From: Candidatus Peregrinibacteria bacterium
GTDB lineage: Bacteria > Patescibacteriota > Gracilibacteria > UBA1369 > LOWO2-01-FULL-3
Reading direction: 5' to 3'
Length of the DNA stretch: 64,000 bases
Assembly: GCA_016206505.1 (NCBI GenBank)
Contig: JACQRJ010000036.1
Location: 365 to 64,364, forward strand
Shown here: piece after piece, positions 4,108-22,985 of the stretch
Numbering within the stretch: position 1 is the first letter of the stretch
Layout of the letters: each line of letters starts with the position of its first letter
Made by a program: the position numbers and the translations under genes
The notes under the pieces: model-generated
What the model was told of the DNA's origin: nothing
Database searches by the model: none
The model's input: only the letters and a program-made list of their open reading frames with translations

Positions 4108-4116
4108 TGTTATAAT
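4108..4116 (+). promoter_or_regulatory. Extended -10 promoter element (TGtTATAAT) upstream of the HNH-domain gene
   Basis: TG at 4108-4109 and TATAAT at 4111-4116, about 45 nt upstream of the GTG at 4159. No good -35 at canonical spacing. Confidence 0.35.
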
Positions 4117-4158
4117 CATACTTTACGGCTTGTTTAAGCTATTTTAAAGAGATGATTC

Positions 4159-5409: not shown

Positions 5410-5902
5410 CAACACTTACAACACCTCGATCGACCATTCGCTTGCCCCTACCAAGCATCTTCCACCCCTTACCGGCAAAATCAATCCCTACATCTTTCAA
5501 ATCAGACAGCAAGCCAAAAGTTTTTGCTATCATCCCACCACCAACACGTCGCTTAACATAACTTTCATATTTTGTCTTAATCATCGAATTATTCAGATTT
5601 ACAATTCTTGTGACTCTCCAGAAATCTTCCAAAGCTCTATTCAATGACGCAATTTGTTCTTTATTGCCCTTAGCACGTATCGCAGCAGACTGATCAAAAG
5701 TTAATGCACAAGCGTTTGCAAAATCGCCATAAGCATCAGCATAACGCTGAGCAGCATCATAAATACGATGAGGATTTTCCTCATCCCGCAGAGCTCTAAA
5801 TTTTCTGACACACTCAGCGGCAGATCCATAGAAATATTTTGCAACTTCTATAAATTCCTGTGGCAGATCGGCCGAGGACTCATTTTTTGTTTCAATACTC
5901 AT
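5315..5902 (-). CDS. Hypothetical protein (196 aa from the internal ATG)
   Basis: The track ORF is 5315..6067. A near-consensus promoter lies inside its first 55 codons, so I place the start at MSIETKNESS (ATG 5902). No family recognised. Confidence 0.5.
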   Translation of the reverse strand: MSIETKNESSADLPQEFIEVAKYFYGSAAECVRKFRALRDEENPHRIYDAAQRYADAYGDFANACALTFDQSAAIRAKGNKEQIASLNRALEDFWRVTRIVNLNNSMIKTKYESYVKRRVGGGMIAKTFGLLSDLKDVGIDFAGKGWKMLGRGKRMVDRGVVSVVRAIVPKPVRKAVGWVGQMGQDVQDFWSEVF

Positions 5903-5933
5903 TTTTGTTTTAGTTAAAAAGAAACCTGGGAAT

Positions 5934-5962
5934 ATCATACAATAAATGACGGATGGCGTCAA
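5934..5962 (-). promoter_or_regulatory. Sigma70-like promoter, TTGACG-17-TATGAT
   Basis: The minus strand reads ccacTTGACGccatccgtcatttattgTATGATattccc. The -35 is at 5957-5962 and the -10 at 5934-5939, with the -10 ending 31 nt upstream of ATG 5902. Confidence 0.45.
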
Positions 5963-6106
5963 GTGGCCAACCTGACATTCCAGGAAAATTCCATATTCAA
6001 AGTGTGAATATTGTTTAGTACTAGCCGAACAACGGTTTCGTAAATCCTCTAACGATTTGCGTTTCACAGGTTCTTTCGCTCGAAGCGATCAAAAAATAAA
6101 TTATAA

Positions 6107-6808
6107 TTAACTGTTCCCGGGAAAAGAAATCCAATATTTATACAATTTATTTTCTTTCGGTCCCGCAATTAAAATAGCCTCAGGCTTTTTTGGCGTTACT
6201 AATACAAGAGTGGGCGCCACAGGACTTTTAACACGAGAAAAAAATCGTATTCCTTGAGCCTTCAATTTATCTTCCACAGATTGTACTCCAGCATAATCTG
6301 TAATTTCATTATGAACAATAATGGCTTTAATTTCAGCAATGTCTTCGCCTTTATTTATCAATTGAGCCATAATATTATCAAGGGCGTAATTCCTTCCTGC
6401 TTCAGAGCTATAATCAAAGGTTTTTTTGCAATAATCCAAAGAACTTCCTGTTGGAGCAGGAGTCATATGAATAAGAACATTAAAATTTTTACCTTGTAAA
6501 ACGACTGCTATGCATCCCCTTAATTCTTCCGTCTCTAAAGCAATTGAATTTTTTGCAAGAACACTTGCCCCGGCAGGCACTTGAACTAAATCTAAATTTT
6601 CACATTCAGTGCAATCACCAAATTGACCATAGTCTACAAAATTGTGACCCAAAGAATGAGACAACCGTGGGTGAAGCCACATTCTGCCTCTATTATTCAT
6701 TAAATAACTCCACGATAACCGCGGATCAGAACCAACCATCTCAATATTTTCAACCGCTTCAATTGGGGGTTGAATTGGCTCTTTTTGTTCTTGCCCGCTT
6801 TCTGTCAT
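6107..6808 (-). CDS. Hypothetical protein, 233 aa, no signal peptide
   Basis: A clean ORF with coding-like composition. No recognisable family. It contains the segment LRGCIAVVLQGKNFNVLIHMTP. Confidence 0.55.
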   Translation of the reverse strand: MTESGQEQKEPIQPPIEAVENIEMVGSDPRLSWSYLMNNRGRMWLHPRLSHSLGHNFVDYGQFGDCTECENLDLVQVPAGASVLAKNSIALETEELRGCIAVVLQGKNFNVLIHMTPAPTGSSLDYCKKTFDYSSEAGRNYALDNIMAQLINKGEDIAEIKAIIVHNEITDYAGVQSVEDKLKAQGIRFFSRVKSPVAPTLVLVTPKKPEAILIAGPKENKLYKYWISFPGNS

Positions 6809-6862
6809 TTAGATTAACTTTTTTAATAAACATATAAATCTAATTAAATCCAACTGAAAAAT

Positions 6863-9223
6863 CTACCGCGAAACCCCGCCCGAAAAATCCCCTTCCGCCA
6901 AGGCAATGCCATAAAGCTCCTCCAAAGTGTATTTCCCCTCAATAACCAAAGGAGTTTTATCAACAGTCACATAAACATTTGTAGCCATTTCGCCATTCAT
7001 CAAAAAATCAAAAGTCAAAAGCACTTTGTCATTTTCTGAAATTTGCGCACCCTTGACACGATAAACCGCATTCAATTCATTCACGACTTCAACATTTTCC
7101 ATTTCCAGAATAAATCCGGCCTCCCCAACTCTCTTTGCCACGAAACTGCGAGCGAAACGCTGGGCATAAGTCTCAACACTTGGCTCTTCCTTGCCATCTT
7201 CAGCCGTAACTTCCGGCACAATATTCGCAAATTTATTGCTCAAAATACTGAAAAGACTGGAAAGCTTCACCGCACGATCGGAAATCAATTCATCATAAGC
7301 ATAAACCTCTTTTATCAGACCAGAGTCGCGATCATACATGCCGGTTATCGGATAGCCCTGCACCGTCGCGGCAATTTTCACAAAGCGCTGACTTAAATCG
7401 GTAATCGGATCTATTTTCAAATTATCGATCCCCGAAACTTCGGCAAAAGCCTGGGTAATTTCGACGACAATTGTGGCCTCCGTAATTTCTTTCGGACTGT
7501 CTCCCAAGACATCTTCCTGAACATTAACAAAATTCCAGATACGATCTTTTTCGCTTAAATATGATTCGTATCGTGCTTTTTGAGTCAAACCGTATGTTTT
7601 TGAAGTCTGATACTCGGGAGTATTCAAAAATCCCCAAAAATCGGCAATTTCAGCCAGTTCGGATTCAAAAATTTCCACCACCGCTACGCTTGAAGAAAAT
7701 TCCGGCATCAACGCGTTGATCTCTGCAACAAGCCTGGAAACAATTTTTTTCGCCGTTACAACATTCACTTTTTCTCCAAAAAAATAAGCCATCAGACGCT
7801 TCAAAAAAGTGATTTTTGCAGTAATCAGTGTCTGTTTCAGCTCGTTTTTCATCTGTCCATCCTGATAAAGCTTAAGTAAATGCTCTTCTAGCACATTTTT
7901 CATCGCAAAATACCCGTCCTTGTAGAACAAAGGCGAAGAAAGCAGAAGATTATCAAACAACTGATTATTGAACGTAATGTAATAAAACAAATAATCGTCC
8001 GAAGCGTTTTGAACCAGACTCGCATCAAAATATTTGTAATAACTGTTAAGAACATCTTCGGCAAGCACGCTATTTTGCTCAAGTCCTTTATAGACATTGA
8101 GCCATGCAAGATTTACCACTTCAAAAACATCGCGTCCGGAAGCAAACTTGCGACTCAAAAGCTCTTTGGAAATTTTATATTGTTCATCAGCAACATCGAA
8201 AATCGCCAAGCGCTGAAGGTAAGCATCATAGCGCTGATAAAAATCCTCGGATGTCTTAAGCTCAAGCGGCAAGCTACTCAAAGCGCCGTCAAATTTCTCC
8301 ATACTAACGCCAAAATTTGCGGTATCAGCTTCAGACAAATAAAAAATCGCGTCATCCAGATAGCCGAAAAGATGCTCAAATAAAATTTCCTTCTTTTTCT
8401 GCGGTACAAAAGTGAGATTTTCCTCCGACCAAAACAAAAAACGTCCCACAAAACCGTCATTCGCAGATTTACCGCCAAAAATAACCCTGGTGGCAAATTC
8501 ACGTTTCTTGGCTTCCAAAAGCGCATCATCATCGGCCATATTTGTTTTTACCCAATCCGAAGCAAAAACCGCACCTGCAATCGCAACGTACTTAAATTCT
8601 TTAACCAACTTAGTATAAAGCAACTTCTCATAGCGCTCATCCAATTTTTTCACATTGATACTGATGGATCTGCCGCGAGGCACAAGGAGCTTATTCACAA
8701 AAATACTGTCATAAGGATCTTTTGCATCCGTCAAGCCGACACCCTTTTGCAAAAATCCCACATAAACATCCCCATCAAAAACCATCAGATTCAAATGATC
8801 GCCATCAAATTCCAGATCAAAAACGGCATGATTCGGCACAATAACGACATTTTCACCTACAAGCAGGTTTTGCCATCGCGTACTCAATTTGAAATTTCCC
8901 CACAGCTTCACACTTTCGGAAATAGCTACAGCATCATCAAAGAGCTTTTTCAGAGGTTCATCGACTGATTTTTCTTCATCGAATCGCAAAATAATATCAT
9001 CGGAAAAAAATGGGGAAAAATTCTGTTCGGAAGCCGTAGGAGAGGCAAAAACGCCTTCAAAATAAAAAGTTCCGACGACCAAAAACAAGGTAACAAGGCC
9101 AAAAACGGCAAACTTTACAAAAACGGGCATTTTTGAGTCCCTTTTCAAGTTTTTTTCTTCCAAAGAAGTCATTTGTTTACATAAAGATAATCCCTCAATT
9201 ATAGCAGAAAAAAGCCAAAGCAT
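6863..9223 (-). CDS. Large membrane-anchored hypothetical protein (up to 786 aa)
   Basis: One N-terminal TM helix (FVKFAVFGLVTLFLVVGTFYF) followed by about 720 aa with no recognised domain. Alternative starts are ATG 9172 (MTSLEEK) or 9130 (MPVFVKF). Confidence 0.7.
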   Translation of the reverse strand: MLWLFSAIIEGLSLCKQMTSLEEKNLKRDSKMPVFVKFAVFGLVTLFLVVGTFYFEGVFASPTASEQNFSPFFSDDIILRFDEEKSVDEPLKKLFDDAVAISESVKLWGNFKLSTRWQNLLVGENVVIVPNHAVFDLEFDGDHLNLMVFDGDVYVGFLQKGVGLTDAKDPYDSIFVNKLLVPRGRSISINVKKLDERYEKLLYTKLVKEFKYVAIAGAVFASDWVKTNMADDDALLEAKKREFATRVIFGGKSANDGFVGRFLFWSEENLTFVPQKKKEILFEHLFGYLDDAIFYLSEADTANFGVSMEKFDGALSSLPLELKTSEDFYQRYDAYLQRLAIFDVADEQYKISKELLSRKFASGRDVFEVVNLAWLNVYKGLEQNSVLAEDVLNSYYKYFDASLVQNASDDYLFYYITFNNQLFDNLLLSSPLFYKDGYFAMKNVLEEHLLKLYQDGQMKNELKQTLITAKITFLKRLMAYFFGEKVNVVTAKKIVSRLVAEINALMPEFSSSVAVVEIFESELAEIADFWGFLNTPEYQTSKTYGLTQKARYESYLSEKDRIWNFVNVQEDVLGDSPKEITEATIVVEITQAFAEVSGIDNLKIDPITDLSQRFVKIAATVQGYPITGMYDRDSGLIKEVYAYDELISDRAVKLSSLFSILSNKFANIVPEVTAEDGKEEPSVETYAQRFARSFVAKRVGEAGFILEMENVEVVNELNAVYRVKGAQISENDKVLLTFDFLMNGEMATNVYVTVDKTPLVIEGKYTLEELYGIALAEGDFSGGVSR

Positions 9224-9321: not shown

Positions 9322-12300
9322 ATGAGTACAGAAAAAAAACAACTGGAAGATGCTCCAAAAGCCGCCGCTGAAGCACCAGACAGACAAGGGCAAAGAGAAG
9401 CGCAAGACACCGTTGATTTGGACAGCATAAGCGATGACCCCGGTAAACGCATGGCTGCCGTATGCCGATTAACCGGTGGACTGGAATCCAAGGAACTTCC
9501 TGGAGTGATTCTTGAAGTAGGCCTAAAAACAAAAAAGCCCAGCGAAGATTTTGCTACAATTACATCAATAGTGCACGCACTTTTTGGTCAAAAATTAACG
9601 CCAAAATGGTCACCAAAAGGCACAATTGTCTTCCAATTTTCATTTCCAAACAGCGACCAAGCGCAAACTGCAGTTTATAGGATAAATACAGCATTCAACG
9701 ATTGTGAAGAGGGAGCTACTCTGCGATTTGGAATGACTGACGAGCCAGCGGAAATTTCAACTCACGACGGACATGTCCTGCTTGCAGGACCTGGGAGTAA
9801 AGTCGCATCAATTAAACGCAAAAATGGAAGAGACCCAAGGATCAACAGCAAAATAGAAGGCAGGGATCAAATCGTTACGCCAAGCGAAATGAGAAGACTA
9901 TCCGTCCCATTCAGAAAGGACATAAGTCCCCGAGCCGCAGAACATGCAGAAACAATCACTCAATCGCCTACAGAAACAATCAGACAAGCTACAGAAGTAC
10001 TTATCTACCTGCCGAAAATCAGCGATCATGAAATAAGAGCCAGAATGACAGCATACGTCATTGAAGCATTGTCACGCCACAACGCCCGCATACTAGACAG
10101 CACAACAGACCCAATCAGAATTTTCATTGCTGAAGAACGCGCTGTAGGAAATCTTGGTCAACGATTGGCTCAAAGATTAAAAAATTACGAAAAATACCAA
10201 ATAGGGATTATAGCAAGACATGCAAACATAGAAACGGAAATTTTGGATGATGGAACTGTCATAATTCACACAGATACACCTGACCCTTTAGACATAGGAA
10301 GACCAAAAGCAGGTCTTTGGATGGACGAAGCAACCCTGGATCTCGCAGGAAATGCGCGCAATCGCTCACTGGCAACATTCACAACAGAACGCGAGAGCGA
10401 AAGAGGCTTTACAAAAGTCAAAGCAATTAAATCGGCAGAATATAGACTAATCACTGATGCAAGTCACTTAGTAGGCAGGGAAGCTGAATCTGGAGCAATC
10501 ACAGCACTGCTTCAATCAGTCAGAAACGAAAAACGACCACGATTTATTACAGTTCTGGGAGAACCCGGTATCGGCAAAACAGAACTGGTGGCTCAAGTAC
10601 TACAAAATGCGGAACGTACGGGCTTTCGTGTTGTTTCCTACAAAATACCGGAAGATGGCACATCACAACATAGAAGCACTGTAAGTAAACTCATCTCCGG
10701 CTTGCTACCGCTATTCAGCGCTCAAGGCGGCGACACGTACGAAATACTCAGGTCATTTGCTGAAGGCCGCACACCGAAAGGAAGCCCACTGGCCACGACA
10801 ATTGAAACTTACAAAAGCAATCCGGCAAGATTGGCAAAAATATTGGCAGAAGCACTGCAAGAAGCTGCAAAAGGAGGGCCAATTGCTCTTGCAATTGATG
10901 ATTTACAATGGACTGACGAATTCAGTAAAATAGCATTAAGCAAACTGGCAGGAGAATTAGCAAACGATCAAAATCCTCTTGCTTTAATTTTTCTCGGACG
11001 TATCGCAGAACAATCTACCACAAGAGAAATCACTGAAGCGGCAATAGAAAAAAATCACACAACGCAGGAAATCAGACTGGCGCCACTATTTAATGATGGA
11101 ACAGCAGAAGCTGAAAGAACACATTTGACTGAGGAATTAATCCGATCACATCTACCACGAAGAATGAGAAGTGCAGTCATACCTCAAACATTTGTACTTG
11201 AAATGATGGCATTTTCAAGAGGATTGCCAATCATCATAACTGAAACCTTGGCACTATTAAGCCAACGCAACCAGCTAAGCTCAAGAGCCGGAAGCCTGGT
11301 GGTACCAGCCACAGCAGCACTAGAGGAACTCTCAAGAAAAGAATCCAGCGCCACATTGGCCTCGATTCTCGAACGCCGACTGCAATTGTTACCACCGAAT
11401 GAAAAATTGGTTACAAATTTGATGGCAATAGTGGGAACAATTGATCTGGAAATTTTTTATCATTTACATGAGAAAATTTATGGAGATGAACATGACCTTG
11501 ATAAAACAATTGATGCACTGGTCGAAAAAGACATTGTTCGAAAATCACCACTGGCCTTTGCCAATGACAGCATGCTGGCAATTTGCAAATCACAAGGGGC
11601 AACAAGTGGCGCTCAATCTCAAATAGCCTACGACTCATATGGGGCTTTGCGAGTATTGCAAGCATCTCGACCAGCATTGGCACCCAAGATAACTCCAAAA
11701 CTGGTATATGAACTCCTTCAAAAAGCTGGCACAGGCGGACAGGAAATGCTCGATTCGGCAACCGGTGCAATAAGATATTGTCTGGATACAAGGCAGCACA
11801 GAGCCGCTATCCGAGCAACAGAAACCTTAATTACAACTTTGGAAATCCATACGGAAAGAACATTGCGCAAACAAGAAGCAGAAGCAGATGAGGATGAAAT
11901 GAAAAGACTATCAGAATTATTAGCAACAAGCTACCAGCAAGCAGCTGAAACCTATCTCCGGGTTGAGGACCATGCAAATGCCAAAGCTGCACTAGAAAAA
12001 CTTGATGAATTGCGGGACCAAATACCTGCACTCGCATCGTTATTTGATGGGAAAAACGGATTAGGTCTTTTTGTACTAAAACTGCGTGCAGCTCGCATCG
12101 CACCACGTAGCGAAGCTGATGGGGAAAAAACAGTGGCATTAACCGCATTGGAAACAGCAATCAATACACTCAGCCCTGGTGATTCAGAATCGGCAGAAGC
12201 AGAAAATCCCCAAATCACGCTAGCAAGAGGCGAAGTACTTGCCAGAAAAATGCAAATCTTAAGTGATAATCAGGATCGAGAGGGCATCGAAAAAATAGAT

Positions 12301-13332
12301 CATGATGGCTCTGTCAACGATCAAATCTTGAAACTTATGCGACTTGGAAGAGTGGGCAATGATCCTAAAACAAAAAACGCTGCCAAGGCGTTGGCTCAAG
12401 ATTTGGAATCAAAATTAGTCCAAATTCGCTTCCATCTCATCGATCGATTAGATATTGCAGGCCCTGTTGGAGAAGAAGCGTTATACCTTCAAGTACCAAC
12501 AGAAATACAACAAAGAATTTTACGGGAAAATAATAGGAGATTTAAAGAATTAATAGAGCTCTATGCCACAAAACCCGAACTGTTGAGAGATCCCGACACA
12601 TACGGATACCTACTTGAAGGCATGGCACGCATCAAAATTTTGCTCGCCAATACCGGCACAGACAGCGAAACCCATGCAGAAGCAGAAGCGGCAATCGAAA
12701 AAGCTCTTGAAGTGGCAACCAATTTCGATCTGCCCCACATTATCTGCCGCACGCGCACGACACGAGGCAACTGGCTCATCGCAAAATCACTATCTACCTA
12801 CAATCCAAACAGAGGTTTAAGAAATTCAAGGGTAAATAAAGACCAACTGGAAAATGCCATCAGAGAATTTAACCTTGGAATCGCTGAAATGGCACGTGGT
12901 CAACAATTGGATAACGACAACGCCAAAGAAGCAATGGCATACAAAGCCATGGCAACAGCAATCTTGATTATCAGTCACCCGCCTCAGACCCCAGCAGAAA
13001 AAGATCTCCGAACTCAACAATTGCTAGAAGCATGGGAAAGGCACCGCATTGTTTTGGAATATCTATATAATTTAAGAATGCAAAATTCTGCATTTGCAAA
13101 ATACTATTACAATGAACTCTCAAACACTGGGCTCTTGATTCAAGCGGGACAAATCCTTGGAATTGCGGCCACTCTAAATCTTCCGACAAACATCCGAAAT
13201 CTATCAGATGACTTTACAGCTGCATTAAGAGGCTCGACGAGGGACATTACCAGCATGAGAGATTTGTCACCCGGCAGCCAACGCCTTCTGCACCTAAGAA
13301 AAGAAGGCATAGCAAATTGCTCTACTGGATAA
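9322..13332 (+). CDS. Giant STAND/AAA_16-type NTPase (paralogue A): two degenerate cyclase-like alpha/beta modules, P-loop NTPase, long helical-repeat (TPR-like) tail
   Basis: LVGREAESGAITALLQSV...ITVLGEPGIGKTELV (Walker A, nt ~10558-10581). IALAIDDLQWTDEFS (Walker B, nt ~10891-10911). SRGLPIIITETLALL. About 650 aa of alpha-helical repeat sequence follow. The track ORF starts at TTG 9265; I prefer ATG 9322 (MSTEKKQ). Confidence 0.85.
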   Translation: MSTEKKQLEDAPKAAAEAPDRQGQREAQDTVDLDSISDDPGKRMAAVCRLTGGLESKELPGVILEVGLKTKKPSEDFATITSIVHALFGQKLTPKWSPKGTIVFQFSFPNSDQAQTAVYRINTAFNDCEEGATLRFGMTDEPAEISTHDGHVLLAGPGSKVASIKRKNGRDPRINSKIEGRDQIVTPSEMRRLSVPFRKDISPRAAEHAETITQSPTETIRQATEVLIYLPKISDHEIRARMTAYVIEALSRHNARILDSTTDPIRIFIAEERAVGNLGQRLAQRLKNYEKYQIGIIARHANIETEILDDGTVIIHTDTPDPLDIGRPKAGLWMDEATLDLAGNARNRSLATFTTERESERGFTKVKAIKSAEYRLITDASHLVGREAESGAITALLQSVRNEKRPRFITVLGEPGIGKTELVAQVLQNAERTGFRVVSYKIPEDGTSQHRSTVSKLISGLLPLFSAQGGDTYEILRSFAEGRTPKGSPLATTIETYKSNPARLAKILAEALQEAAKGGPIALAIDDLQWTDEFSKIALSKLAGELANDQNPLALIFLGRIAEQSTTREITEAAIEKNHTTQEIRLAPLFNDGTAEAERTHLTEELIRSHLPRRMRSAVIPQTFVLEMMAFSRGLPIIITETLALLSQRNQLSSRAGSLVVPATAALEELSRKESSATLASILERRLQLLPPNEKLVTNLMAIVGTIDLEIFYHLHEKIYGDEHDLDKTIDALVEKDIVRKSPLAFANDSMLAICKSQGATSGAQSQIAYDSYGALRVLQASRPALAPKITPKLVYELLQKAGTGGQEMLDSATGAIRYCLDTRQHRAAIRATETLITTLEIHTERTLRKQEAEADEDEMKRLSELLATSYQQAAETYLRVEDHANAKAALEKLDELRDQIPALASLFDGKNGLGLFVLKLRAARIAPRSEADGEKTVALTALETAINTLSPGDSESAEAENPQITLARGEVLARKMQILSDNQDREGIEKIDHDGSVNDQILKLMRLGRVGNDPKTKNAAKALAQDLESKLVQIRFHLIDRLDIAGPVGEEALYLQVPTEIQQRILRENNRRFKELIELYATKPELLRDPDTYGYLLEGMARIKILLANTGTDSETHAEAEAAIEKALEVATNFDLPHIICRTRTTRGNWLIAKSLSTYNPNRGLRNSRVNKDQLENAIREFNLGIAEMARGQQLDNDNAKEAMAYKAMATAILIISHPPQTPAEKDLRTQQLLEAWERHRIVLEYLYNLRMQNSAFAKYYYNELSNTGLLIQAGQILGIAATLNLPTNIRNLSDDFTAALRGSTRDITSMRDLSPGSQRLLHLRKEGIANCSTG

Positions 13333-13585
13333 TATTCGGTGTCGGGGAAGGGAATAACTGCTGCTCCAAATTAGGAGTAGGAGATGGAAATATTTGCTGC
13401 TCCAAAAATCTATTGTTATAAAGATTTTTTGGAACCTTTGGATTTCTTAAGATGGATGACTCAAAATCCACGGGAACCAAAATTCTATAGAGAAAAATCA
13501 AAGAAACAATCACCGCTCCGGTAAGAAGTCCAAGCCAAAATACAACCATTGGATGCACCTGTGCCATTGAAACTGTTTTGCTCAT
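13322..13585 (-). CDS. Small single-pass membrane protein with a C-terminal tandem 12-aa repeat (EQQ[IL]FPSPTPN[LI] x2)
   Basis: TM helix VVFWLGLLTGAVIVSLIFLY. The two 36-bp repeat copies (13331-13366 and 13367-13402) differ almost only at synonymous third positions (ttc cct tcc ccg aca ccg vs ttt cca tct cct act cct). That argues this frame is translated. The start is ATG 13585 or 13567 (track: 13633). The 3' end overlaps the paralogue A stop by 11 nt. Confidence 0.6.
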   Translation of the reverse strand: MSKTVSMAQVHPMVVFWLGLLTGAVIVSLIFLYRILVPVDFESSILRNPKVPKNLYNNRFLEQQIFPSPTPNLEQQLFPSPTPNIIQ

Positions 13586-13668
13586 TTTTATTTTTGTTAG
13601 TTTTCCATCTAAACTGATTAAATTATACAACAATCACTCATCACAGTCAACAAAAGCTTGCCAGCATT

Positions 13669-13696
13669 TTGACAAAAGTCAAAAATATATTAAGAT
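13669..13696 (+). promoter_or_regulatory. Promoter TTGACA-16-TAAGAT for paralogue B, with the palindrome TTGACaaaaGTCAA over the -35
   Basis: TTGACA at 13669-13674, GTCAA at 13678-13682 and TAAGAT at 13691-13696, about 35 nt upstream of ATG 13730. Confidence 0.4.
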
Positions 13697-13729
13697 CAAG
13701 ACTCGTAGAAGACTCTGTAATCACGAAAA

Positions 13730-16700
13730 ATGGCAACAACCGGAAATCCAGACGCTACTGATCCTGACATAGAAGATCCTCTAGCGGCACCAACAAGGCC
13801 ACTACCGCTCATCAAGCCCACACAAGCCTTACCACTCAACGAACCCACACAACTTTTAGTCAAAAAGCCTAAAAATCCAGACGAAAATCCGAAAGGAACT
13901 GCAGATACAAAATTTCAGAAGGAATACCTTGCATCAAGCCCCGAAGCAATTCGGGAACCCGCCGGTCAAAAAGCCGCTTCACAAGCGGGCATCGAAAGAG
14001 ACGGCGAGCTAAAAGAAATGCCCGGAGCAATCCTGGACATTGAATTACGCCTCTCCTCTCATTTCAAAACAGATCAGTACCCAAAAAAAGCATTTGCCAT
14101 AGTTAAAAGTGCAATTGCACATTTTCAGGGAGCGTTACTTCATTTTATCCCGACGCCAAAGGGCTATTTGAGATGCCAATGCATCTTCCCAAACAGAGCC
14201 CAAGCGCACAACGCAGCAGTTTACATTCACCAGAACACTGATAACGACCCTGATCATCATGCACCCATAAAAAAAGCCAAATTCGGTCTTGCTCAAGATC
14301 AAAGCCACTTAGCAACCTGCAACGGTCATCTGCTTGTATTCGGAAACGCCGCCAGAATGGCCATGAAACTTCAACATGCAAATCCGGAAACGGCCGAAGT
14401 TCCGGTAGTGGCAACCTACGAACATTCGGCAGATACAGAAAAAGAAACAATCCTGGGTAATTCACTTAGGGAAGAAAAAATAGAGGAAAAGAAACCATTA
14501 CATTCCCGCGAAACAGAAAGGTCCAGAAATCACGCCCACGAAGCCGTACGCCTGCCAAATCCTGATTTACCGCAAGTAGCTTCCCGCGTTGAAATCCGCT
14601 TTCCAAGAAACCTTGCACAAAATCCGGCGGAAACATTAAAAATCGCCACCGGATTTATCGATGCCATCGCGCCTCACCCCATGTCAAAAGGCTCAAAGTA
14701 CAGCCCGACTCACGCAATTCTCACCGGCCAAATTCTGACTATCTATCTCCCTGAAGAACGCGCTCCGGGCAATTTAGGTGAAAGACTCGAAAGCATGGAA
14801 CAGGAAATCCGGAAAAACGGCTTGATCATAATTCTTTCCCACAGCCGATATTCAGCCGTTGCACTCGATGAAGATAATCATACATTTCAGGGAGCACTGC
14901 CGCCATCCGCAACTCTGGGGGAAGATCTTGATCTGGATACAGAAAAAGGAAGTGCCGGTATTTACCTTGATGATCATTTTAAAGAAGCGGCCAGCCACGA
15001 ACGCAATGCCTCGATAGCAGTTTTTGTTACTGAGACTAAAGCAAGTCTACAAGTGCCTAAAGCTGTACGCTTAACAGCTACCCAAAGAAAAAAAACAGGA
15101 CGGGACAGCGAACTTCACCACGAAAATCTCTACAAAGTCCAAAGAATAGAAATTGCCAAAGAAGCCGTAGTCAAAGGTAGATTTACAGTGGGACGTGAAA
15201 AAGAAATAGCAGACCTTAATGCGACATTGGAAGCGGTACGAGACGGAAAAACCGCAAAATTCACCATTATCAATGGTGAAGCCGGCATCGGCAAAACCAG
15301 ACATGCGGTAGACGCAATCCGTCTGGCCGAAGAAAAAGGCTACTGTTCAGTTTATTACAAAACGCCGGAAAACGGCAAGACGTCTTCACTTACCGGCGTG
15401 AGAAGAATGACCAAAAGTCTCCTGGCAAAACTTGGCGGCGACGCCGGAGAAACTTTCCGCGATTTACAATTTTTCAGCCTCGGAATAGTGCCTCCCGGTG
15501 AAATAGACGCCTACGGAAAAAGAGTCGAAGCTCTCAATCAAAATCAGGTTCTGGCCGCCGAAAGACTCACCGCACTGATTGTTCAGTGCGCACAGACCCG
15601 GCCGCTTCAGCTGATTCTGGACGACCTTCAATGGTTCGACGAATTATCAATCGCGATTTTAACAAGGGTAATACAGGAAATCCCTCAGGAAACTCCTTTG
15701 CACCTTGCACTTTTGGGCAGAAGCGGCGAAGAACCGATTCCGCAGGATCTTACCGATGCCATGTCCGCAAGAGCTGGACACTATCACGAAACTTCACTCA
15801 GAAGAATCGGCAACGCGGCGCAAATCAGAGCAGAATTACTCGAGGAAGAGCCTGAAATGCATGACCCCCAACTCCAAGATCGCATTGATCAAAAACGCTT
15901 CAAATTAACCAAAGATTACATTTACTCCAATCTTCCTGAAAATTGCGCGGATGCAGAAATCGCCGACGGCTTTGTGTGGAAAATCCTGGAAATATCCGAA
16001 GGATTGCCGATAGTAATCTCCGAAACGGTCGCACTGCTTTTGGAAGAAGGCAAAATAGAATTGAGAGGTTCAAGCATCTCTACGCCCAGTAACGCAGAAT
16101 TGGATACGATGAAGAAAGACAGCACAAGCGAAACATTGAGCACAATTATCCAGGCAAAATTTGATCGCTTAAGCGAAGATGAAAAAACGATTATTGATTA
16201 CCTTGTCGTACTGAGAGAAACTGATTTAAGGCTTTTTGCCGGACTGCTCAAGTATTTGAGACTTTCAGAAGAAAGAATCCGGCAATCCCTCAGCGCTTTA
16301 AGTCAAAAAGGACTGATTAGAACCAATCCGGTTGGTTTCACACACGATCTGATTCAAAAACAAAGAAGAGATCAGCTAAAGGATATTGGATCTCTTTCAC
16401 GCAAAGCAGCAGCCTGTTACTTGCCACTGGCCGCAAATCGCAGCCGCTTTGCAAATCTCATTTCTCCAAGCCAACTTTTTGAACTTCTGGAAATTGCTCT
16501 GGAAAATCCCGAAGAACATAGAATAAAAGTACGCACAAAATTACTGGAAGCACAAGTACCGCTTGGACTGGAAGCAGCCGATCACAGCCTCCAGGTTCAA
16601 AATCAATACAGAGCGCTACAAATCGTGGAAACACTTGAGTCACAACTGACCAGCGAATTTGCTCCCTATCTCTATCCGCCAAAATCAGAAGAACCCGATG

Positions 16701-18229
16701 CGGAAGCAAAAAAAACAGCCCTGGCACTAAATCTCAGTGAAATTCACCTACGAGCTGCGGAAGCCCACATCCGTCTCGGCCACAAAACCGAACCGGAAAG
16801 TGCTCTCACAAAATACGCCCGGCTATCTGCAAAAGCACCCGAGGCAAAAGTCCAGGAAGGCGAAAGAGGCTTTCGTTACAAAGTTCTGCGTCTAAAAGCC
16901 GCTTTTGCACAAAGATCCCGGGAAAAACTCGGAGAAGCGCTTACAGAATTGGAAGGCGCGCCCGAACTTGTCGCTTTAAGAACTGCCCTTAAAGAAGCTA
17001 CCGTTGTTCAAGACACAGGATTACAACCCCATGTCATGATCGCCTATGGAGAACTCATTATCGCAAAATTAAGACTTGCGGGAGCCAGACAAAGTCAGGA
17101 AGCACAGGAAGCATTGGATGCGGTTCTTCCGGAAGCGGAAAATATCATCGCAATGCTAAAAACGGATACAACATCTGCCGAAATTAAAGCTCTGCGAATT
17201 GACATCGAAAGAACAATCGCTATCAACGAAGCTCATATTTTCCGCAAACAAATTCGTGGCAACGTCGAAGATGCCTTATACATGGAAGAATTCACTACTG
17301 AGCAGCAAGCAAAAGCGGCAGAACTGGAACAAACACTGATCGGAATTTTGCAAACCTATCTTACAGACACACAATTGGTCAGAGATCCCCAAACTCTGGG
17401 CTTTCTGTACGAAAGAATAGTTGAAATGCAAATTATTCAAGACCATCGCGACGAAGCCAGAAAAACAACAGAAAGAGGTCTTCGTTTAAGCCACAACTGG
17501 GGCATTCCGGAAGCAGTCAGCGCTTTAAACATGCTTGCTGGCGATGAAAAGACAACACAGCAAATTGCCAAAATCGACCTTACACATATGGAAACCATCG
17601 ATTCTGCAAAACATTTTGACGAAGCACTGCTCATAGAAGCTCTGGAAAACTATACCCAGGGAATTTTGGCAATGGAAAGAATGGGAGCCACAAATGCCGT
17701 GCACATCCAAACCAATGTCGTAAACAGAACAACTTGCATGGCACTATATGCATTTTCAAAGCTTGCAAAAAATCCGGAATTTGACACCAGCAAAAGCAAT
17801 ACAGCAATGATAATGCGCATGCCAACAATCGAAACCGTACAAGAAATGGAAGCGTTAAAGGCACAAATCCGGGAAACCTGGAATGTGATGATTAGAGTTC
17901 TGTTACAATTAAGAGACAACTACAACCCTGCAAAACCTGCAAACGAGCCGCAAAACCAAGCATACTTGCAGGAGTTAAGCGGATTGGGACTGCTTTATAA
18001 AGCCGCGCGAAGAATAGGAATAAGCGACATTGCCATCCCGGATTTCATCGACACTTCAGAAATTTTATCCGAACGTCAATACTTACAACAAATTGACGAA
18101 AAACCACAAAAACCGCTATCACAAGCCGACAAAAAGTATCTCAAATTAAGAAAAGAAGGCATAGTAGCTCTTATACCTGGCGGCGAAGATACAACAATTT
18201 CTCTGGCAGACCTTGATGAATTGCTGTAA
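13730..18229 (+). CDS. Giant STAND/AAA_16-type NTPase (paralogue B), same architecture as paralogue A
   Basis: TVGREKEIADLNATLEAV...FTIINGEAGIGKTRHA (nt ~15275-15298). LQLILDDLQWFDELS. SEGLPIVISETVALL. Long helical tail. It is collinear with paralogue A from the N-terminal modules to the C-terminal LRKEGI motif. Confidence 0.85.
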   Translation: MATTGNPDATDPDIEDPLAAPTRPLPLIKPTQALPLNEPTQLLVKKPKNPDENPKGTADTKFQKEYLASSPEAIREPAGQKAASQAGIERDGELKEMPGAILDIELRLSSHFKTDQYPKKAFAIVKSAIAHFQGALLHFIPTPKGYLRCQCIFPNRAQAHNAAVYIHQNTDNDPDHHAPIKKAKFGLAQDQSHLATCNGHLLVFGNAARMAMKLQHANPETAEVPVVATYEHSADTEKETILGNSLREEKIEEKKPLHSRETERSRNHAHEAVRLPNPDLPQVASRVEIRFPRNLAQNPAETLKIATGFIDAIAPHPMSKGSKYSPTHAILTGQILTIYLPEERAPGNLGERLESMEQEIRKNGLIIILSHSRYSAVALDEDNHTFQGALPPSATLGEDLDLDTEKGSAGIYLDDHFKEAASHERNASIAVFVTETKASLQVPKAVRLTATQRKKTGRDSELHHENLYKVQRIEIAKEAVVKGRFTVGREKEIADLNATLEAVRDGKTAKFTIINGEAGIGKTRHAVDAIRLAEEKGYCSVYYKTPENGKTSSLTGVRRMTKSLLAKLGGDAGETFRDLQFFSLGIVPPGEIDAYGKRVEALNQNQVLAAERLTALIVQCAQTRPLQLILDDLQWFDELSIAILTRVIQEIPQETPLHLALLGRSGEEPIPQDLTDAMSARAGHYHETSLRRIGNAAQIRAELLEEEPEMHDPQLQDRIDQKRFKLTKDYIYSNLPENCADAEIADGFVWKILEISEGLPIVISETVALLLEEGKIELRGSSISTPSNAELDTMKKDSTSETLSTIIQAKFDRLSEDEKTIIDYLVVLRETDLRLFAGLLKYLRLSEERIRQSLSALSQKGLIRTNPVGFTHDLIQKQRRDQLKDIGSLSRKAAACYLPLAANRSRFANLISPSQLFELLEIALENPEEHRIKVRTKLLEAQVPLGLEAADHSLQVQNQYRALQIVETLESQLTSEFAPYLYPPKSEEPDAEAKKTALALNLSEIHLRAAEAHIRLGHKTEPESALTKYARLSAKAPEAKVQEGERGFRYKVLRLKAAFAQRSREKLGEALTELEGAPELVALRTALKEATVVQDTGLQPHVMIAYGELIIAKLRLAGARQSQEAQEALDAVLPEAENIIAMLKTDTTSAEIKALRIDIERTIAINEAHIFRKQIRGNVEDALYMEEFTTEQQAKAAELEQTLIGILQTYLTDTQLVRDPQTLGFLYERIVEMQIIQDHRDEARKTTERGLRLSHNWGIPEAVSALNMLAGDEKTTQQIAKIDLTHMETIDSAKHFDEALLIEALENYTQGILAMERMGATNAVHIQTNVVNRTTCMALYAFSKLAKNPEFDTSKSNTAMIMRMPTIETVQEMEALKAQIRETWNVMIRVLLQLRDNYNPAKPANEPQNQAYLQELSGLGLLYKAARRIGISDIAIPDFIDTSEILSERQYLQQIDEKPQKPLSQADKKYLKLRKEGIVALIPGGEDTTISLADLDELL

Positions 18230-18239
18230 TTTGCGGCTC

Positions 18240-19859
18240 ATGAAAAAATTATTTCAATTAACAACAATCGGCCTTTTTATCTTCCTGATGCCATTTGAAG
18301 CGATGGCATTTTACGAAGATGTTGCAGAAAATCATCAATACTACAATCCCATCAAAGCATTGTACGAACTTCAAAAACTGCCTGAAGACACAAATTTCAA
18401 ACCGGACGACAAACTTACCAACTCAAATTTCTACAAGCTTCTAAGCACTTTTGGAGGCACGAAAATTGCAACCGATGAAAATCTGAATCCTGCAAATTTT
18501 CCGCCAAAACATCGCATCCTCTCCGAAATGTTTTACTACCTTGGCATCGGCACCAATTATCTCTTTGATAAAGAAAATTTCTATTTCCTGGATTTGGACA
18601 AAAATTCACCCCTCTCCCCCATCGCCCAAAAAGCTTCAGAAATCGGCATTGTCGAAGACAAAGAAGATCAGCAATTTTTCAAAATGGCCCAACGCCTTAC
18701 AAATGCGCAGGCCGCCGACTATTTATACAAAATTTACCTCTACAAAAACCCCGATGCTCTGGAAGAAAAGCCCAATGCCATCAATATAATCACCATCACA
18801 GAAACCACGGAAGATACGCGGGAACTTGGCACTTTTGTCGATGTCTGGAACGTCTTAAAAAACTATTATTTTTACAAGGAAGAACTCGATGAAGAAGCGA
18901 TGATTTACGATGCCATAGAGGGCTTGCTCAAGACCGTACCCGATGATTACACCGGATTTAGCGAACCTTCCGAAGCGGAAGAATTTTTTGACAGTCTGGA
19001 AAATGAATTTGAAGGCATCGGCATTATGATCGAAATGGTCAATGAACAGGTCACAATCATCAGCCCCCTTGCCGATTCCCCAGCTCAAAAAGCCGGACTT
19101 CTGCCCAATGACATTATTTCAAAAGTTGACAATGAAAGTATCACCGGCCTAAATCTCGATGCTGTAGCCAAAAAAATCAAAGGCCCCGCACAAACTGTCG
19201 TAAAAATCACGGTTTTGAGAAATGAAAAAGAGCTCATTTTTGAAGTCACCAGACAAAAAATAACCCAGGAAGCCGTAACCGGCAAAATTATCAAGGAAAA
19301 TGGCAAAAAAATCGCCTATATCAAATTGACCACTTTTGGCCAAGATACGGCAAAAGAATTGGAAAAAACGGGCAAAGAACTTTTGCTCGACAATCCCAAA
19401 GGATTCATTCTCGATCTGCGCAACAATCCCGGCGGCTACCTCAACTCCGCCATCGAGATGGTCGGCCTGTTTTTGAAAGAAGAAAAAACAGTAGTAAAAG
19501 TCAAATCGGCAAGCGGCCTAACGGAAGAATATAAAAGCGCCGTCGATGGAACTCTTGCCGGACAAAAAATCGTCATCATTATCAACAAAGGCTCCGCTTC
19601 CGCTTCGGAAATCCTAGCCGGCGCGCTGCAAGATCATGAAATCGCGACATTAATCGGCACAATTTCTTTTGGCAAAGGCACCGTTCAAAACATCAAAAGC
19701 TACAAAGACGGCTCGATTTTCAAATACACTATGGCCAAATGGCTCACCCCAAAAGACCGCGACATCGATAAAATCGGTCTGACTCCGGACAAAATCATCG
19801 AAAACGACACTGCAACAACAGAAGACGAACAGCTAAAAGCGGCTTTGGCGGAGTTCTAA
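18240..19859 (+). CDS. ctpA: Carboxy-terminal processing protease (S41 family) with a PDZ domain and signal peptide
   Basis: Signal peptide MKKLFQLTTIGLFIFLMPFEAMA. PDZ-like segment GIGIMIEMVNEQVTIISPLADSPAQKAGLLPNDII. S41 motifs LDLRNNPGGYL and GSASASEILAGALQD. The track ORF starts at 18213; ATG 18240 avoids overlapping the upstream gene. Confidence 0.85.
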   Translation: MKKLFQLTTIGLFIFLMPFEAMAFYEDVAENHQYYNPIKALYELQKLPEDTNFKPDDKLTNSNFYKLLSTFGGTKIATDENLNPANFPPKHRILSEMFYYLGIGTNYLFDKENFYFLDLDKNSPLSPIAQKASEIGIVEDKEDQQFFKMAQRLTNAQAADYLYKIYLYKNPDALEEKPNAINIITITETTEDTRELGTFVDVWNVLKNYYFYKEELDEEAMIYDAIEGLLKTVPDDYTGFSEPSEAEEFFDSLENEFEGIGIMIEMVNEQVTIISPLADSPAQKAGLLPNDIISKVDNESITGLNLDAVAKKIKGPAQTVVKITVLRNEKELIFEVTRQKITQEAVTGKIIKENGKKIAYIKLTTFGQDTAKELEKTGKELLLDNPKGFILDLRNNPGGYLNSAIEMVGLFLKEEKTVVKVKSASGLTEEYKSAVDGTLAGQKIVIIINKGSASASEILAGALQDHEIATLIGTISFGKGTVQNIKSYKDGSIFKYTMAKWLTPKDRDIDKIGLTPDKIIENDTATTEDEQLKAALAEF

Positions 19860-22800
19860 GCATAAGCCGTATCTTTTGCGTCTCGATAACGCTCATAGAC
19901 AAAATTATAGACCTCGATCCCTTTAATGTCGCATTCCTGCTGTGAATAGGTTGGTTCCGGTAACGAATTGTAGAGAATATCGATAATTGTCGTTTTAACG
20001 CCTGCCCTTGCCGATTCTTTTTCTCGCCAATCAAGCACTAACTTTTCTTTTTTGAGTTTTGCCAATAATTCGTGAGAAGCCTTTCTAACTTTTTCAACTT
20101 CGTCAGGGTTCAGATTTTCCTTTAAGAGCAGGTCGAAAATTGCCAGTTCCTCCTCGCTCAAATTTTCTTTAACTGCTCGCTGTTCTTCTTTATCCAAACT
20201 CTTTGCCAAATCAACCAGATCATTCAAGAGTTGGTCGACATCGTGTGCTCCGCTGTTGTAAACCTGAAGTATTGCATTTAAACGATCCATGAAGCGCCCT
20301 CGCTTTTTATTGCGTTCCATCATCTCTTCTATTTTTTCTTCAAGCTCAGTTTTCATGCTCTCAGCTTGCAAATTCTTATTTTCCAGACCAGCAAAGAATT
20401 CATGGAGAGCATTGGCATCGAGACTACTCAAATCTTTAACGCGTTTATGTTGCGGGATGACATATTCGCCTGCCTGAATGGATTTATCGAGCAGGTCTTC
20501 CAAATCCTTTTGCACCTGTGAAACATCGATGCTTTCTCCAGTAACAAGACGAATCCGTTGAGCAATCGTACGAATAGCTGCTACCTGATCGTAATAATCT
20601 TCTGCGTCAGGTGCCGGCAATACAGACTGGTAGGCGCTTTGTAAATCACTCGCAAGGTTCAAAAATGCCTTTTTCTTCTCCGGTTGGCCGACAATGGTGT
20701 TTGCATATTTCTCTATCAAAAGCAATTTTTGCTCATTTGGAACCTTCAAGAGAACATTTATATCAATCTGCTCACCCTGCAAAAATTCTTTCACCGATTC
20801 GAGCAGGTTTTTTAATTGGCTCACCAGTTCATCTTTGCTCCGAATAATGTCGTTTTCATCGGCACCGTTGGCAGCATAGAGTGCAAGAGCTCGCTCAATG
20901 TTCTTGAACACGCCTATATAATCGACAATCAGTCCATTTTTCTTGCCCTCAGCTACACGATTGGCACGAGCGATGGTCTGCATGAGGGTGTGATTTTTTA
21001 GCGGTTTATCGAGGTACAGTGTTGAAAGGTTTGGCACATCAAATCCCGTCATCCACATGGCGCACACAAAAACGATGCGAAGATCACTGTCGGATTTCTT
21101 GAATTCCTCTTCAAGGTTCTCTTTCTGCATACGTTCACGCAATGGGCGCATATCAATGTCGAACGGTTCCAGATCGGCAATTTCGTTCTGGCTCTGGCTC
21201 ACCACGACGGCCATATCAACATCTTCATGTCGCTCGAGTTGTGCCTCTACCTTCGCCTGTCCCCTCTCATTTTGCGTTCTGGATAGATCCATGCGGAGTT
21301 TGGCCAAATAACGCTCCCATTCGGCCTTTACTTTGGCATACATCCGCACGGCTGTTTTTTTGTCTACAGAAACCACCATCGCCTTGCCGTCGTATCCCCG
21401 TCCGACAAAATGCTCCACAATATCACGCGCAATCGCATTCAAGCGATCTTCACGTGTTACAAGATGGTAAAAAGTTGAAAACTCCTGCTCCAATTTTTCT
21501 TCCGCATCTTCATTCAGATCATAAAATTCCATGATGTTGTTCATCTCTTTCTCCAACGAGTCATTTACATTTTTAAGGCGCGGCACACGGTTTTCGTAAA
21601 ATAACGGCACGGTCGCACCATCAGCTACTGATTGGCCGAAATTATAGATCGATACATATTCACCGAAAGTCTCCCGCGTTTTTTCTTCACCGTTGGCCAA
21701 AAGTGGCGTGCCGGTAAAACCCATAAACGAAGCATTGGGCAGGGCTTTTCGCATATTTTGCGCCATGCGATCATACTGTGTGCGATGCGCTTCATCGGTC
21801 ATGAGAATAATGTCATTGCGTGTTGAAATAGCTCCTTCAATATCCTGAAATTTCTGAATGGTGGTAAAAATCTGGCGATGATCCTGCGCCAATAGCTCAT
21901 GCAAATGAACGATACTTTCTGCTTTTACCTCTTTTTCATAAACCGCACCTACACTGGCAAATTCCTTGTAGGCCTGACGATCCAAAGCTCCGCGATCAGT
22001 CACAATCACAAAAGTAAAATTGCCCGTCAGTTTACGCAGCACTTTTTGGGAGAGATAGACCATCGAGTACGATTTGCCAGACCCCTGCGTATGCCAAAAC
22101 ACACCGAGCTTTCCTTCGTTCTCTTTGCGATGAATCACTTTCTCAAAGGCTTTATTGACACCAAAATATTGGAAGTATCGTGGCACAATCTTTTTCGTTT
22201 CGCCTTTGGATTCATCGAACAAAATATAGTTTTCAAAAATATCCAACAGGCGCGATTTATCGCATATACCGCTGATCATTGTGGCAAGGTCGGTCTTTGC
22301 AGTATCTTCTTCACTCTCGGCCTTTTTCCACTCGTTAAAAAACTCATAGGGCGAAGTAAGTGAGCCAAATCTATTCTCTATACCGTTGGAAATCATAACT
22401 CCCATGTTGTACCAGAAGAGTTTTGGGATGGTGTCTTTGTAATCACGAAGATTATCTTTATAGGCATCCACAAGGCTTTTATGTGAAGCCTTCAGCTCCA
22501 AAAGCATCAGTGGAATGCCATTCACAAACAGCACTACATCAGGGCGACGTGTATGCATTTCACCAGTGATCCAGAGTTGGGATACACAAAGAAAGTGATT
22601 ATTTTCCGGATTTTTAAAATCAAAAAATCGCACCCTTTCAGTCTCGCTCACACCGCTTTCATTTGCCGAAATTACGCTTCCACCGTCGCGCAAAATCCTA
22701 TAAATCTCATGATTGGCATTCACAAGCGAAAGATGTGACCGATCGCGTGTAAGTTCGTCCATTGCCATGGTGAGCAATGGTTCCTGTAGTGTTGGATTGA

Positions 22801-22981
22801 GCTTTTGAAGCGCAGGCAACAAAAACTTTTTTAGTATCACTTCTCCTCGATGTTCACGGCCAAGCTTGGCATCATCTTCGTCTTTGTAGGCGTTGATATG
22901 GCATGTCTTATCATTCCACAGCTTTTTGATGAGGCTGATGACGGTTTGTTCGACGAGTTGGTCTTCTGTGAATTGGTTCAT
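19856..22981 (-). CDS. hsdR: Type I restriction enzyme R subunit
   Basis: 1041 aa. N-terminal nuclease region (RPDVVLFVNGIPLMLLELK), SF2 helicase motifs (HTQGSGKS, MTDEAHRTQ, GFTGTP, MQTIARANR) and a C-terminal HsdR-type helical domain. Confidence 0.95.
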   Translation of the reverse strand: MNQFTEDQLVEQTVISLIKKLWNDKTCHINAYKDEDDAKLGREHRGEVILKKFLLPALQKLNPTLQEPLLTMAMDELTRDRSHLSLVNANHEIYRILRDGGSVISANESGVSETERVRFFDFKNPENNHFLCVSQLWITGEMHTRRPDVVLFVNGIPLMLLELKASHKSLVDAYKDNLRDYKDTIPKLFWYNMGVMISNGIENRFGSLTSPYEFFNEWKKAESEEDTAKTDLATMISGICDKSRLLDIFENYILFDESKGETKKIVPRYFQYFGVNKAFEKVIHRKENEGKLGVFWHTQGSGKSYSMVYLSQKVLRKLTGNFTFVIVTDRGALDRQAYKEFASVGAVYEKEVKAESIVHLHELLAQDHRQIFTTIQKFQDIEGAISTRNDIILMTDEAHRTQYDRMAQNMRKALPNASFMGFTGTPLLANGEEKTRETFGEYVSIYNFGQSVADGATVPLFYENRVPRLKNVNDSLEKEMNNIMEFYDLNEDAEEKLEQEFSTFYHLVTREDRLNAIARDIVEHFVGRGYDGKAMVVSVDKKTAVRMYAKVKAEWERYLAKLRMDLSRTQNERGQAKVEAQLERHEDVDMAVVVSQSQNEIADLEPFDIDMRPLRERMQKENLEEEFKKSDSDLRIVFVCAMWMTGFDVPNLSTLYLDKPLKNHTLMQTIARANRVAEGKKNGLIVDYIGVFKNIERALALYAANGADENDIIRSKDELVSQLKNLLESVKEFLQGEQIDINVLLKVPNEQKLLLIEKYANTIVGQPEKKKAFLNLASDLQSAYQSVLPAPDAEDYYDQVAAIRTIAQRIRLVTGESIDVSQVQKDLEDLLDKSIQAGEYVIPQHKRVKDLSSLDANALHEFFAGLENKNLQAESMKTELEEKIEEMMERNKKRGRFMDRLNAILQVYNSGAHDVDQLLNDLVDLAKSLDKEEQRAVKENLSEEELAIFDLLLKENLNPDEVEKVRKASHELLAKLKKEKLVLDWREKESARAGVKTTIIDILYNSLPEPTYSQQECDIKGIEVYNFVYERYRDAKDTAYA

Positions 22982-22985
22982 AGAT

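Follow-up and report, generated by a model that had tools for sequence, protein, structure and literature searches.

Two large neighboring genes on the forward strand, here called A and B, lie in a 64,000-nucleotide stretch of DNA from a Candidatus Peregrinibacteria bacterium (contig JACQRJ010000036.1; the whole of this stretch is referred to as the window, and positions are counted from its first letter). A and B are diverged paralogs, and they belong to a very small group of STAND NTPases (nucleoside triphosphatases) of 1250-1500 aa, whose modules follow the order cyclase-like domain, cyclase-like domain, AAA_16 NTPase, winged helix and TPR-like solenoid, with the head and tail modules defined from structure models. 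The explanation that we favor, with confidence slightly better than even, is that A and B are copies of a lineage-specific STAND signaling switch that has a pseudo-cyclase head and a linked small membrane protein and that was duplicated locally. The two genes are as follows.

9322..13332, forward strand: gene A, 1336 aa from ATG (open reading frame and translation)
13730..18229, forward strand: gene B, 1499 aa from ATG, a paralog of A with the same domain order

A preliminary description of this DNA, made from the letters and their open reading frames (ORFs), had reported two same-strand ORFs of 1336 and 1499 aa, proposed that they were collinear but diverged paralogs, and listed landmark motifs common to them. 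Both ORFs were found at these coordinates, all of the motifs are present in the same order in A and B, and BLASTP joins the two proteins end to end in a single collinear alignment of ~1440 columns (25% identity, E-value (E) 3e-93). Compared with A, B has a longer disordered N terminus and insertions within the head. Both proteins are labeled at NCBI as AAA family ATPase of Candidatus Peregrinibacteria bacterium (on a 90.8-kb contig), and the NCBI model of A is 61 residues shorter (1275 aa); we prefer the start at 9322 because conservation within the family reaches upstream of the NCBI start.

The assignment of both proteins to the AAA_16-type STAND ATPases, also proposed in that description, was borne out by significant Pfam AAA_16 matches and intact Walker motifs in A and B.

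10468..10989, forward strand: NTPase core of A, residues 383-556 (Pfam AAA_16 E 9.7e-20; Walker A GEPGIGKT, Walker B AIDD)
15188..15700, forward strand: NTPase core of B, residues 487-657 (Pfam AAA_16 E 3e-16; Walker A GEAGIGKT, Walker B ILDD)

The sensor-1 motif LGR of A (G559-R560) lies just 3' of the 10468..10989 span. Among 20 aligned family members, the Walker A motif GxxGxGK[ST], the Walker B DD and the sensor arginine (R560 in A) are invariant throughout, as are G634 and P636 (A numbering) of a GLP motif. The P-loop motifs, the sensor-1 arginine together with a GxP motif and a winged helix, and the C-terminal repeat domain, which were the features examined as marks of a STAND protein, were all found. 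When compared with PDB by Foldseek, the NTPase part of the A model matched Orc1/Cdc6, ORC, TnsC, MuB and plant NLR resistosomes and NB-ARC structures; a Foldseek search of viral structures returned generic AAA+ ATPases only.

The remainder of A, downstream of the NTPase core, was defined from a second model.

11017..13329, forward strand: helical domain of A with the GLP motif, winged-helix hairpins and TPR-like alpha-solenoid (AlphaFold2 tail model, Foldseek and invariant columns)

The AlphaFold2 model of residues 600-1336 (predicted local distance difference test, pLDDT, 83.5) contains the winged-helix region followed by an all-alpha solenoid, the protein ends in a conserved LRKEGI-type motif, and the beta-hairpins that follow the helical domain are seen in both models of A. 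The long helical tails mentioned in the earlier description appear in the model as an all-alpha TPR-like solenoid, for which the best Foldseek match is the STAND-TPR protein 6mfv, followed by the TPR arrays of APC5 and LGN. The match to 6mfv is weak (E 4e-4, TM-score ~0.3) and typical of generic solenoids, and a single Pfam TPR_8 match lies below the family cutoff. AAA_16 plus TPR is the core of the MalT/LAL regulators; A and B have this core, and several of the weak AAA_16 matches carry LuxR or winged helix-turn-helix (wHTH) domains, so that A and B might be read as transcription regulators of the MalT/LAL type, ligand-driven oligomers that activate a DNA-binding output domain. We disfavor this reading as highly improbable: Pfam at E <= 1 detects no helix-turn-helix (HTH), LuxR or wHTH family in either protein, once past the STAND winged-helix region the tail model continues as an unbroken solenoid, and the N terminus is occupied by the cyclase-like head. 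MalT-type STAND-TPR proteins (6mfv) resemble A and B in their nucleotide-binding oligomerization domain, winged helix and TPR sensor arm, but their N-terminal output domain is not the head found here.

We then consider the head, for which residues 30-720 of A were modeled with AlphaFold2 from a 15-member family alignment.

9487..9816, forward strand: cyclase-homology-like domain 1 of A, approximately residues 56-165 (DSSP of the model and Foldseek; boundaries approximate)
9967..10446, forward strand: cyclase-homology-like domain 2 of A with a beta linker, approximately residues 216-375 (model, Foldseek and motif columns; boundaries approximate)

The model (mean pLDDT 82, predicted TM-score 0.70) comprises two beta-alpha-beta-beta-alpha-beta units, a beta linker and the NTPase, and DSSP assigns to domain 1 a beta-alpha-beta-beta-alpha-beta topology plus a hairpin. 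The head finds its top PDB match in human soluble adenylyl cyclase (sAC), namely in the C1-C2 core (4usw, E 6.6e-8, 450 columns, target-normalized TM-score 0.47), and 10 more sAC entries and the soluble domain of AC9 are among the top 20 matches. Thus, the predicted structure has a cyclase-homology fold with two domains arranged as a pseudo-heterodimer, and the heads of A and B are predicted to be tandem degenerate class III cyclase-homology domains packed like C1-C2 of sAC. Comparison of head domain 1 with head domain 2 by hhalign recovered no relationship, and a single-sequence phmmer search of A against PDB sequences left the head unassigned.

This predicted architecture invites comparison with sAC, which is an active, bicarbonate-regulated cyclase. 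The module order of C1-C2, STAND and helical-repeat C terminus is the same in both, and sAC structures are the best matches of the A head model; the difference is that the head of A and B has neither detectable sequence similarity to sAC nor the canonical metal and transition-state residues. Full-length sAC has been described as a heterologous pair of catalytic domains, C1 and C2, followed by a predicted STAND P-loop region whose role is still unexplained (PMC12802110). Because A and B run in the order cyclase-like, cyclase-like, STAND and TPR, they would have the layout of full-length sAC (PMC12802110). Accordingly, the N-terminal head, whose architecture was new to the author of the preliminary description, is modeled as tandem cyclase-homology domains in an sAC-like layout that had already been described (PMC12802110).

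A second group for comparison is formed by bacterial cyclase-AAA_16-TPR proteins (PF00211 plus PF13191; P0003, P0005, P0007 and P0012), whose NTPase is ~25-31% identical to those of A and B. As in A and B, a cyclase-fold effector occupies the N terminus of these proteins, and a TPR tail is frequent; the difference is that their cyclase domain is single and recognizable from sequence, and their Walker A lies at about residues 210-260, whereas A and B have two tandem degenerate domains. Single-domain proteins of this kind, of which the mycobacterial Rv0386 type is another example, must homodimerize. Many of them carry a LuxR HTH, unlike A and B.

To ask whether the head resembles an active enzyme, we mapped the catalytic positions of class III cyclases onto 20 members by a manual alignment anchored on predicted strands, which is provisional because it is not a coordinate superposition. 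In domain 1, 14 of the 20 members have D or E where the first metal-binding aspartate is expected (E in A, within ILEVGL at position 65). The second metal aspartate, expected after the glycine of the beta2-beta3 hairpin, is absent from every one of the 20, and in domain 2 neither an Asn-x3-Arg transition-state pair nor a conserved substrate lysine was found, so that the full set of cyclase catalytic residues (two Asp, Lys, Asn/Arg) is lacking in this mapping. The head keeps invariant residues of its own in the family alignment (G150, E272, G331 and R346, A numbering) along with the near-invariant G276 and N347, and domain 2 has the family motifs EERAxGN and (H)ERN; because of these residues we believe that some conserved site exists in the head, and E272 and R346 would build such a conserved, non-canonical site. 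Because the canonical cyclase residues are missing, the heads are most likely non-catalytic, and our data suggest a pseudo-cyclase that most likely acts by binding or scaffolding; canonical cyclase activity is unlikely.

The evidence on the head can also be read in favor of catalysis, with A and B as ligand-gated sAC-like cyclases that use a non-canonical site and STAND oligomerization as the switch. The fold matches the catalytic cores of sAC and AC9, the acidic residue at the first metal position is retained in most members, a conserved functional site is implied by E272 and R346, both strictly invariant, and by G276 and N347, both nearly so, and bacterial AAA_16 proteins with genuine PF00211 domains are common. 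We nevertheless consider active heads rather unlikely, since the second metal aspartate is missing from all members, domain 2 offers no conserved Asn-x3-Arg pair or substrate lysine, the head has no sequence-level likeness to PF00211, and no cyclic nucleotide-binding effector was seen among the ORFs annotated in the window.

The family to which these proteins belong is small and apparently confined to one part of the bacterial tree. An exhaustive HMMER search with residues 137-1336 of A against 1.84 billion representative proteins returned 16 proteins at E <= 1e-10. Among the matches listed, ~16 span most of the query, some of them weaker than 1e-10, and most of these are 1240-1500 aa long with 23-29% identity; the other ~1600 matches cover the NTPase only. 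Every family member with a named source organism comes from Patescibacteria or Peregrinibacteria. A pattern scan built on an eight-sequence alignment found one true relative in 185,579 GTDB species genomes, in a metagenome-assembled genome of Patescibacteria, with NTPase-only matches making up the rest, and it found zero true relatives in JGI metagenome contigs. Word-indexed homolog searches returned A itself and AAA_16-level matches only when A was the query, and nothing useful when the 20-sequence family alignment was used.

Distant members of the family are single-copy genes (P0021, on three contigs; P0026; P0029, on a 509-kb contig; and P0040, in GCA_018826445.1) in a conserved setting. 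In P0026, P0029 and P0040, a gene for a PFL-like glycyl-radical enzyme (reverse strand), the family gene (forward strand) and an ORF of 77-84 aa (reverse strand) occur in this order; rpsT (ribosomal protein S20, reverse strand) and maf (forward strand) lie downstream in the lineages of P0021, P0026 and P0029; and P0024 adjoins the adenylosuccinate synthase gene (purA).

The short ORF downstream of these distant members has a counterpart between A and B, a gene overlooked in the preliminary description.

13322..13585, reverse strand: gene for a small membrane protein with a single membrane pass (87 aa when started at the first ATG); A is convergent with it and B divergent from it
13622..13696, both strands: back-to-back promoter-like sites (consensus match only)
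13650..13622, reverse strand: promoter-like TTGACT-17-TATAAT facing the small membrane-protein gene (consensus scan)
13669..13696, forward strand: promoter-like TTGACA-16-TAAGAT facing B (consensus scan)

Its product has a transmembrane (TM) helix, FWLGLLTGAVIV, and a proline-rich tail that is predicted to be cytoplasmic. We regard the small ORF as a real gene because its protein is conserved in three related loci (66-67% identity in contigs L003-L005) and because a four-locus DNA alignment has the conservation pattern of coding sequence; both promoter-like hexamer regions are conserved in the same alignment. As the small gene lies between A and B on the opposite strand and the promoter-like sites face it and B, A and B are separate transcription units. 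Except for the B copies, family genes almost always have a convergent gene for an ~80-aa single-pass membrane protein as their next downstream neighbor. Homologs of the small ORF lie directly downstream of distant family genes in L088, L169, L172 and L173, and in all the homology was confirmed by sequence in 8 distinct loci, a count that does not include an 80-aa ORF beside P0029; L087 is one clear exception. This linkage spans loci whose STAND genes share only ~20-30% identity. Common to the small proteins are a TM helix of the form FWxGxLTGA...FLYR and a short tail, which ends in GDPxPW in most lineages and has PSPTPN repeats in its place in the lineage of the window. Thus, by linkage, the small TM gene counts as a partner that is conserved with the family. 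In two loci, the small TM gene occurs as two tandem diverged copies (L088 5228-5782, 75 and 100 aa; L169 7791-8384, 78 and 104 aa).

The origin of the pair itself is best followed together with the flanking genes in the window.

1900-3816, reverse strand: gyrB
3817-6862, both strands: several ORFs with no assigned function
6863-9223, reverse strand: protein of 786 aa, anchored by an N-terminal TM segment and matching no family, divergent from A
18240-19859, forward strand: S41 C-terminal processing protease (Peptidase_S41 E 2.3e-49, PDZ, TIGR00225)
19856-28857, reverse strand: Type I restriction-modification (R-M) block with hsdR, fused PARIS AriAB (E 4.5e-111), hsdS, RhuM-like PDC-S05 and hsdM
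28933-31434, reverse strand: VirB4/TraG-like ATPase
32696-35335, forward strand: gyrA, then housekeeping genes

Three orthologs of B were found, on the Logan contigs L003-L005, where the order is a 765/767-aa protein gene (reverse strand), an A-like gene, the small ORF (reverse strand), a B-like gene and the S41 gene, as far as the contigs reach; this five-gene order was pieced together across L003-L005, and no single contig spans all five. The identities between the window and these relatives are uneven.

VirB4-like protein, window against relatives: 95%
786-aa protein, window against relatives: 73-79%
S41 protease, window against relatives: 71-78%
B, window against L003-L005: 59-63%
A, window against the A-like genes of L003-L005: 27%

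Compared with one another, the A-like genes of those three contigs have identities of 44-56%. In a neighbor-joining tree, the A of the window has a very long branch next to the remaining A-slot genes, and the A and B clades are sisters within the family. The A slot has therefore diverged, or has been replaced, far more than its neighbors. The divergence is uniform along the domains and is not concentrated in the sensor arm, and the ratio of nonsynonymous to synonymous substitution rates (dN/dS), 0.11-0.16, indicates purifying selection, with dS saturated for A and B. Between the window and L003/L004, the VirB4-like and S41 genes have a dS of ~0.9-1.0, the gene of the 786-aa protein one of 1.4, and B and the small gene one of ~2.5; the value for A is saturated. 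Such uneven values might reflect mosaic recombination or allelic replacement of the central segment, a reading that is only suggestive because dS is saturated and the estimates are unreliable. The best reading of these data is that the ancestral state was one copy and that the duplication took place in the sub-lineage of the window. The proposal of a two-sensor module did not hold, in that no more than four loci, all closely related, keep the pair, which is not ancestral to the family.

Two of the flanking genes deserve comment. The 786-aa protein is 73-79% identical in L003 and L004, and its gene is not linked to distant family members. The 1.6-kb gap that the preliminary description had left after B is the gene of a secreted S41 protease, which starts 10 nt past B and has the N-terminal signal or anchor sequence MKKLFQLTTIGLFIFLMPFEAMA. 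Its position beside B recurs in at least three of the four closely related loci; distant family members do not have it as a neighbor, and for the latter reason we place it probably outside the module. We also considered that this protease might trim the LRKEGI tails of A and B; this is unlikely, given its signal or anchor sequence and its lack of linkage to distant members.

The presence of a Type I R-M and PARIS-like block 1.6 kb from B, as reported earlier, was confirmed (hsdR ends at 19856), and from it a role of A and B in defense had been suggested. In L003, however, the S41 gene directly abuts the VirB4/TraG-like gene, which encodes a product with 95% identity to the window copy, and alignment of the junction DNA with L003 identifies the block, a Type I R-M operon in which two further genes are embedded, as a clean insertion of ~9.07 kb that separates two convergent stop codons and has its junctions at ~19860 and ~28930, with the 8-bp CTTTGGCG at both. 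No integrase or transposase is among the genes annotated inside the block. Because L003 has the junction without the block, we conclude that the R-M/PARIS genes are a strain-specific insertion rather than a conserved neighbor, and that the adjacency of A and B to them is recent and without functional meaning. PADLOC gave no significant match for A or B (for A, only weak matches in the P-loop region, E ~1e-3), NCBIfam gave no Avs match and no defense or equivalog assignment for either, and neither contains a known Avs-type effector domain (nuclease, protease, TIR or SIR2). The suggested defense association thus fails on three counts: the block is an insertion absent from L003, PADLOC gives no significant match, and the relatives lie in housekeeping synteny. 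The distant homologs are single-copy and syntenic and have no defense association, the very pattern that the preliminary description had itself named as contrary to its proposal.

It could still be argued that A and B are an Avs/NLR-like antiviral sensor pair, in which the TPR arms sense phage proteins and the head triggers an abortive response. Avs (AVAST) proteins share with A and B the logic of effector, STAND NTPase and TPR-like sensor, and STAND plus TPR is an architecture common to Avs-type sensors; in this genome the genes adjoin R-M, PARIS and RhuM-like genes; the site evidently takes in accessory DNA; and hypervariability marks the A slot, where identity is 27% and that of the flanks 73-95%. 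We judge this reading to be quite improbable. A and B differ from Avs in lacking a match to any PADLOC or NCBIfam defense model and a known effector, and their relatives have no association with defense islands; the defense block is absent from L003, where the flanks are 79-95% identical; the genes of distant members are single-copy and their housekeeping synteny is conserved; the divergence is not sensor-focused; and a dN/dS of ~0.1-0.16 also speaks against it.

Elsewhere in the window, gyrB and gyrA are ~29 kb apart and are separated mostly by lineage-specific genes, among them the VirB4/TraG-like gene and two small ORFs at 31584-32452, which together may be a remnant related to type IV secretion or pili. 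The 391-aa protein encoded at 703-1878 has an NAD glycohydrolase translocation F5/8 type C domain (PF25302 E 1.9e-20), and the ORF at 5315-6067 has a weak match to the immunity protein family Imm61 (E 6e-4); these may belong to a toxin/immunity-type accessory region. The ORF at 51858-55169 (1103 aa) is an unusual fusion, SecD/SecF with an inserted PPIC rotamase at residues 271-394.

How might A and B work? In characterized STAND proteins such as MalT, Apaf-1 and NLRs, a sensor arm restrains the NTPase until a ligand or partner binds, and TPR domains commonly bind peptides. By analogy, the TPR arm of A and B would keep the NTPase inactive as long as no ligand or partner is bound, and ATP-dependent oligomerization would then cluster the N-terminal heads as the output. 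The predicted cytoplasmic tail of the small membrane protein would be the most plausible partner of the TPR arm, or would serve as a membrane tether. A more specific version is a membrane-coupled device in which the GDPxPW or PSPTPN peptide is the TPR ligand that gates STAND oligomerization, and the head makes a nucleotide messenger through the E272/R346 site. This version is a long shot; if it were true, A and B would represent a bacterial sAC-like enzyme whose active site has been rewired, bearing on the origin of the C1-C2-STAND architecture of sAC.

Several points weigh against the reading that we favor, a STAND signaling switch with a non-catalytic pseudo-cyclase head. The cyclase assignment of the head comes from predicted structure alone, and its two-domain match to sAC has a moderate TM-score of 0.41-0.48; Pfam Guanylate_cyc (PF00211) has no match at E <= 1 in A, B or 13 head sequences, hhalign of the head against a profile of genuine AAA_16-linked cyclase domains gives a probability of ~1%, and a search of PDB sequences with the head profile found nothing. 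In addition, the residue mapping is manual, the gene contexts come from short metagenomic contigs in few samples, and no output pathway turned up. The small TM protein is proposed as the TPR-arm partner from gene linkage and the usual peptide-binding role of TPR domains, and the strong divergence of A relative to its flanks is also what would be expected of an arms-race gene.

STAND NTPases, cyclase-AAA_16-TPR proteins and the sAC layout are already known. What our analysis adds is a bacterial STAND protein with a tandem cyclase-fold head that cannot be recognized from sequence and is probably non-catalytic; the apparent restriction of the family to few Patescibacteria/Peregrinibacteria; a conserved micro-membrane-protein partner; and a local duplication with a hypervariable first copy. 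A minimal bacterial protein that has the module order of sAC, an intact NTPase and a small partner gene could be a tractable model for the STAND region of sAC. Our data also indicate that a giant STAND pair beside restriction genes need not be an immune system, as this family behaves like a conserved chromosomal gene. To our knowledge, few regulatory systems are known in organisms of the Candidate Phyla Radiation, whose biology gains here a lineage-specific cytoplasmic signaling protein linked to a membrane micro-protein.

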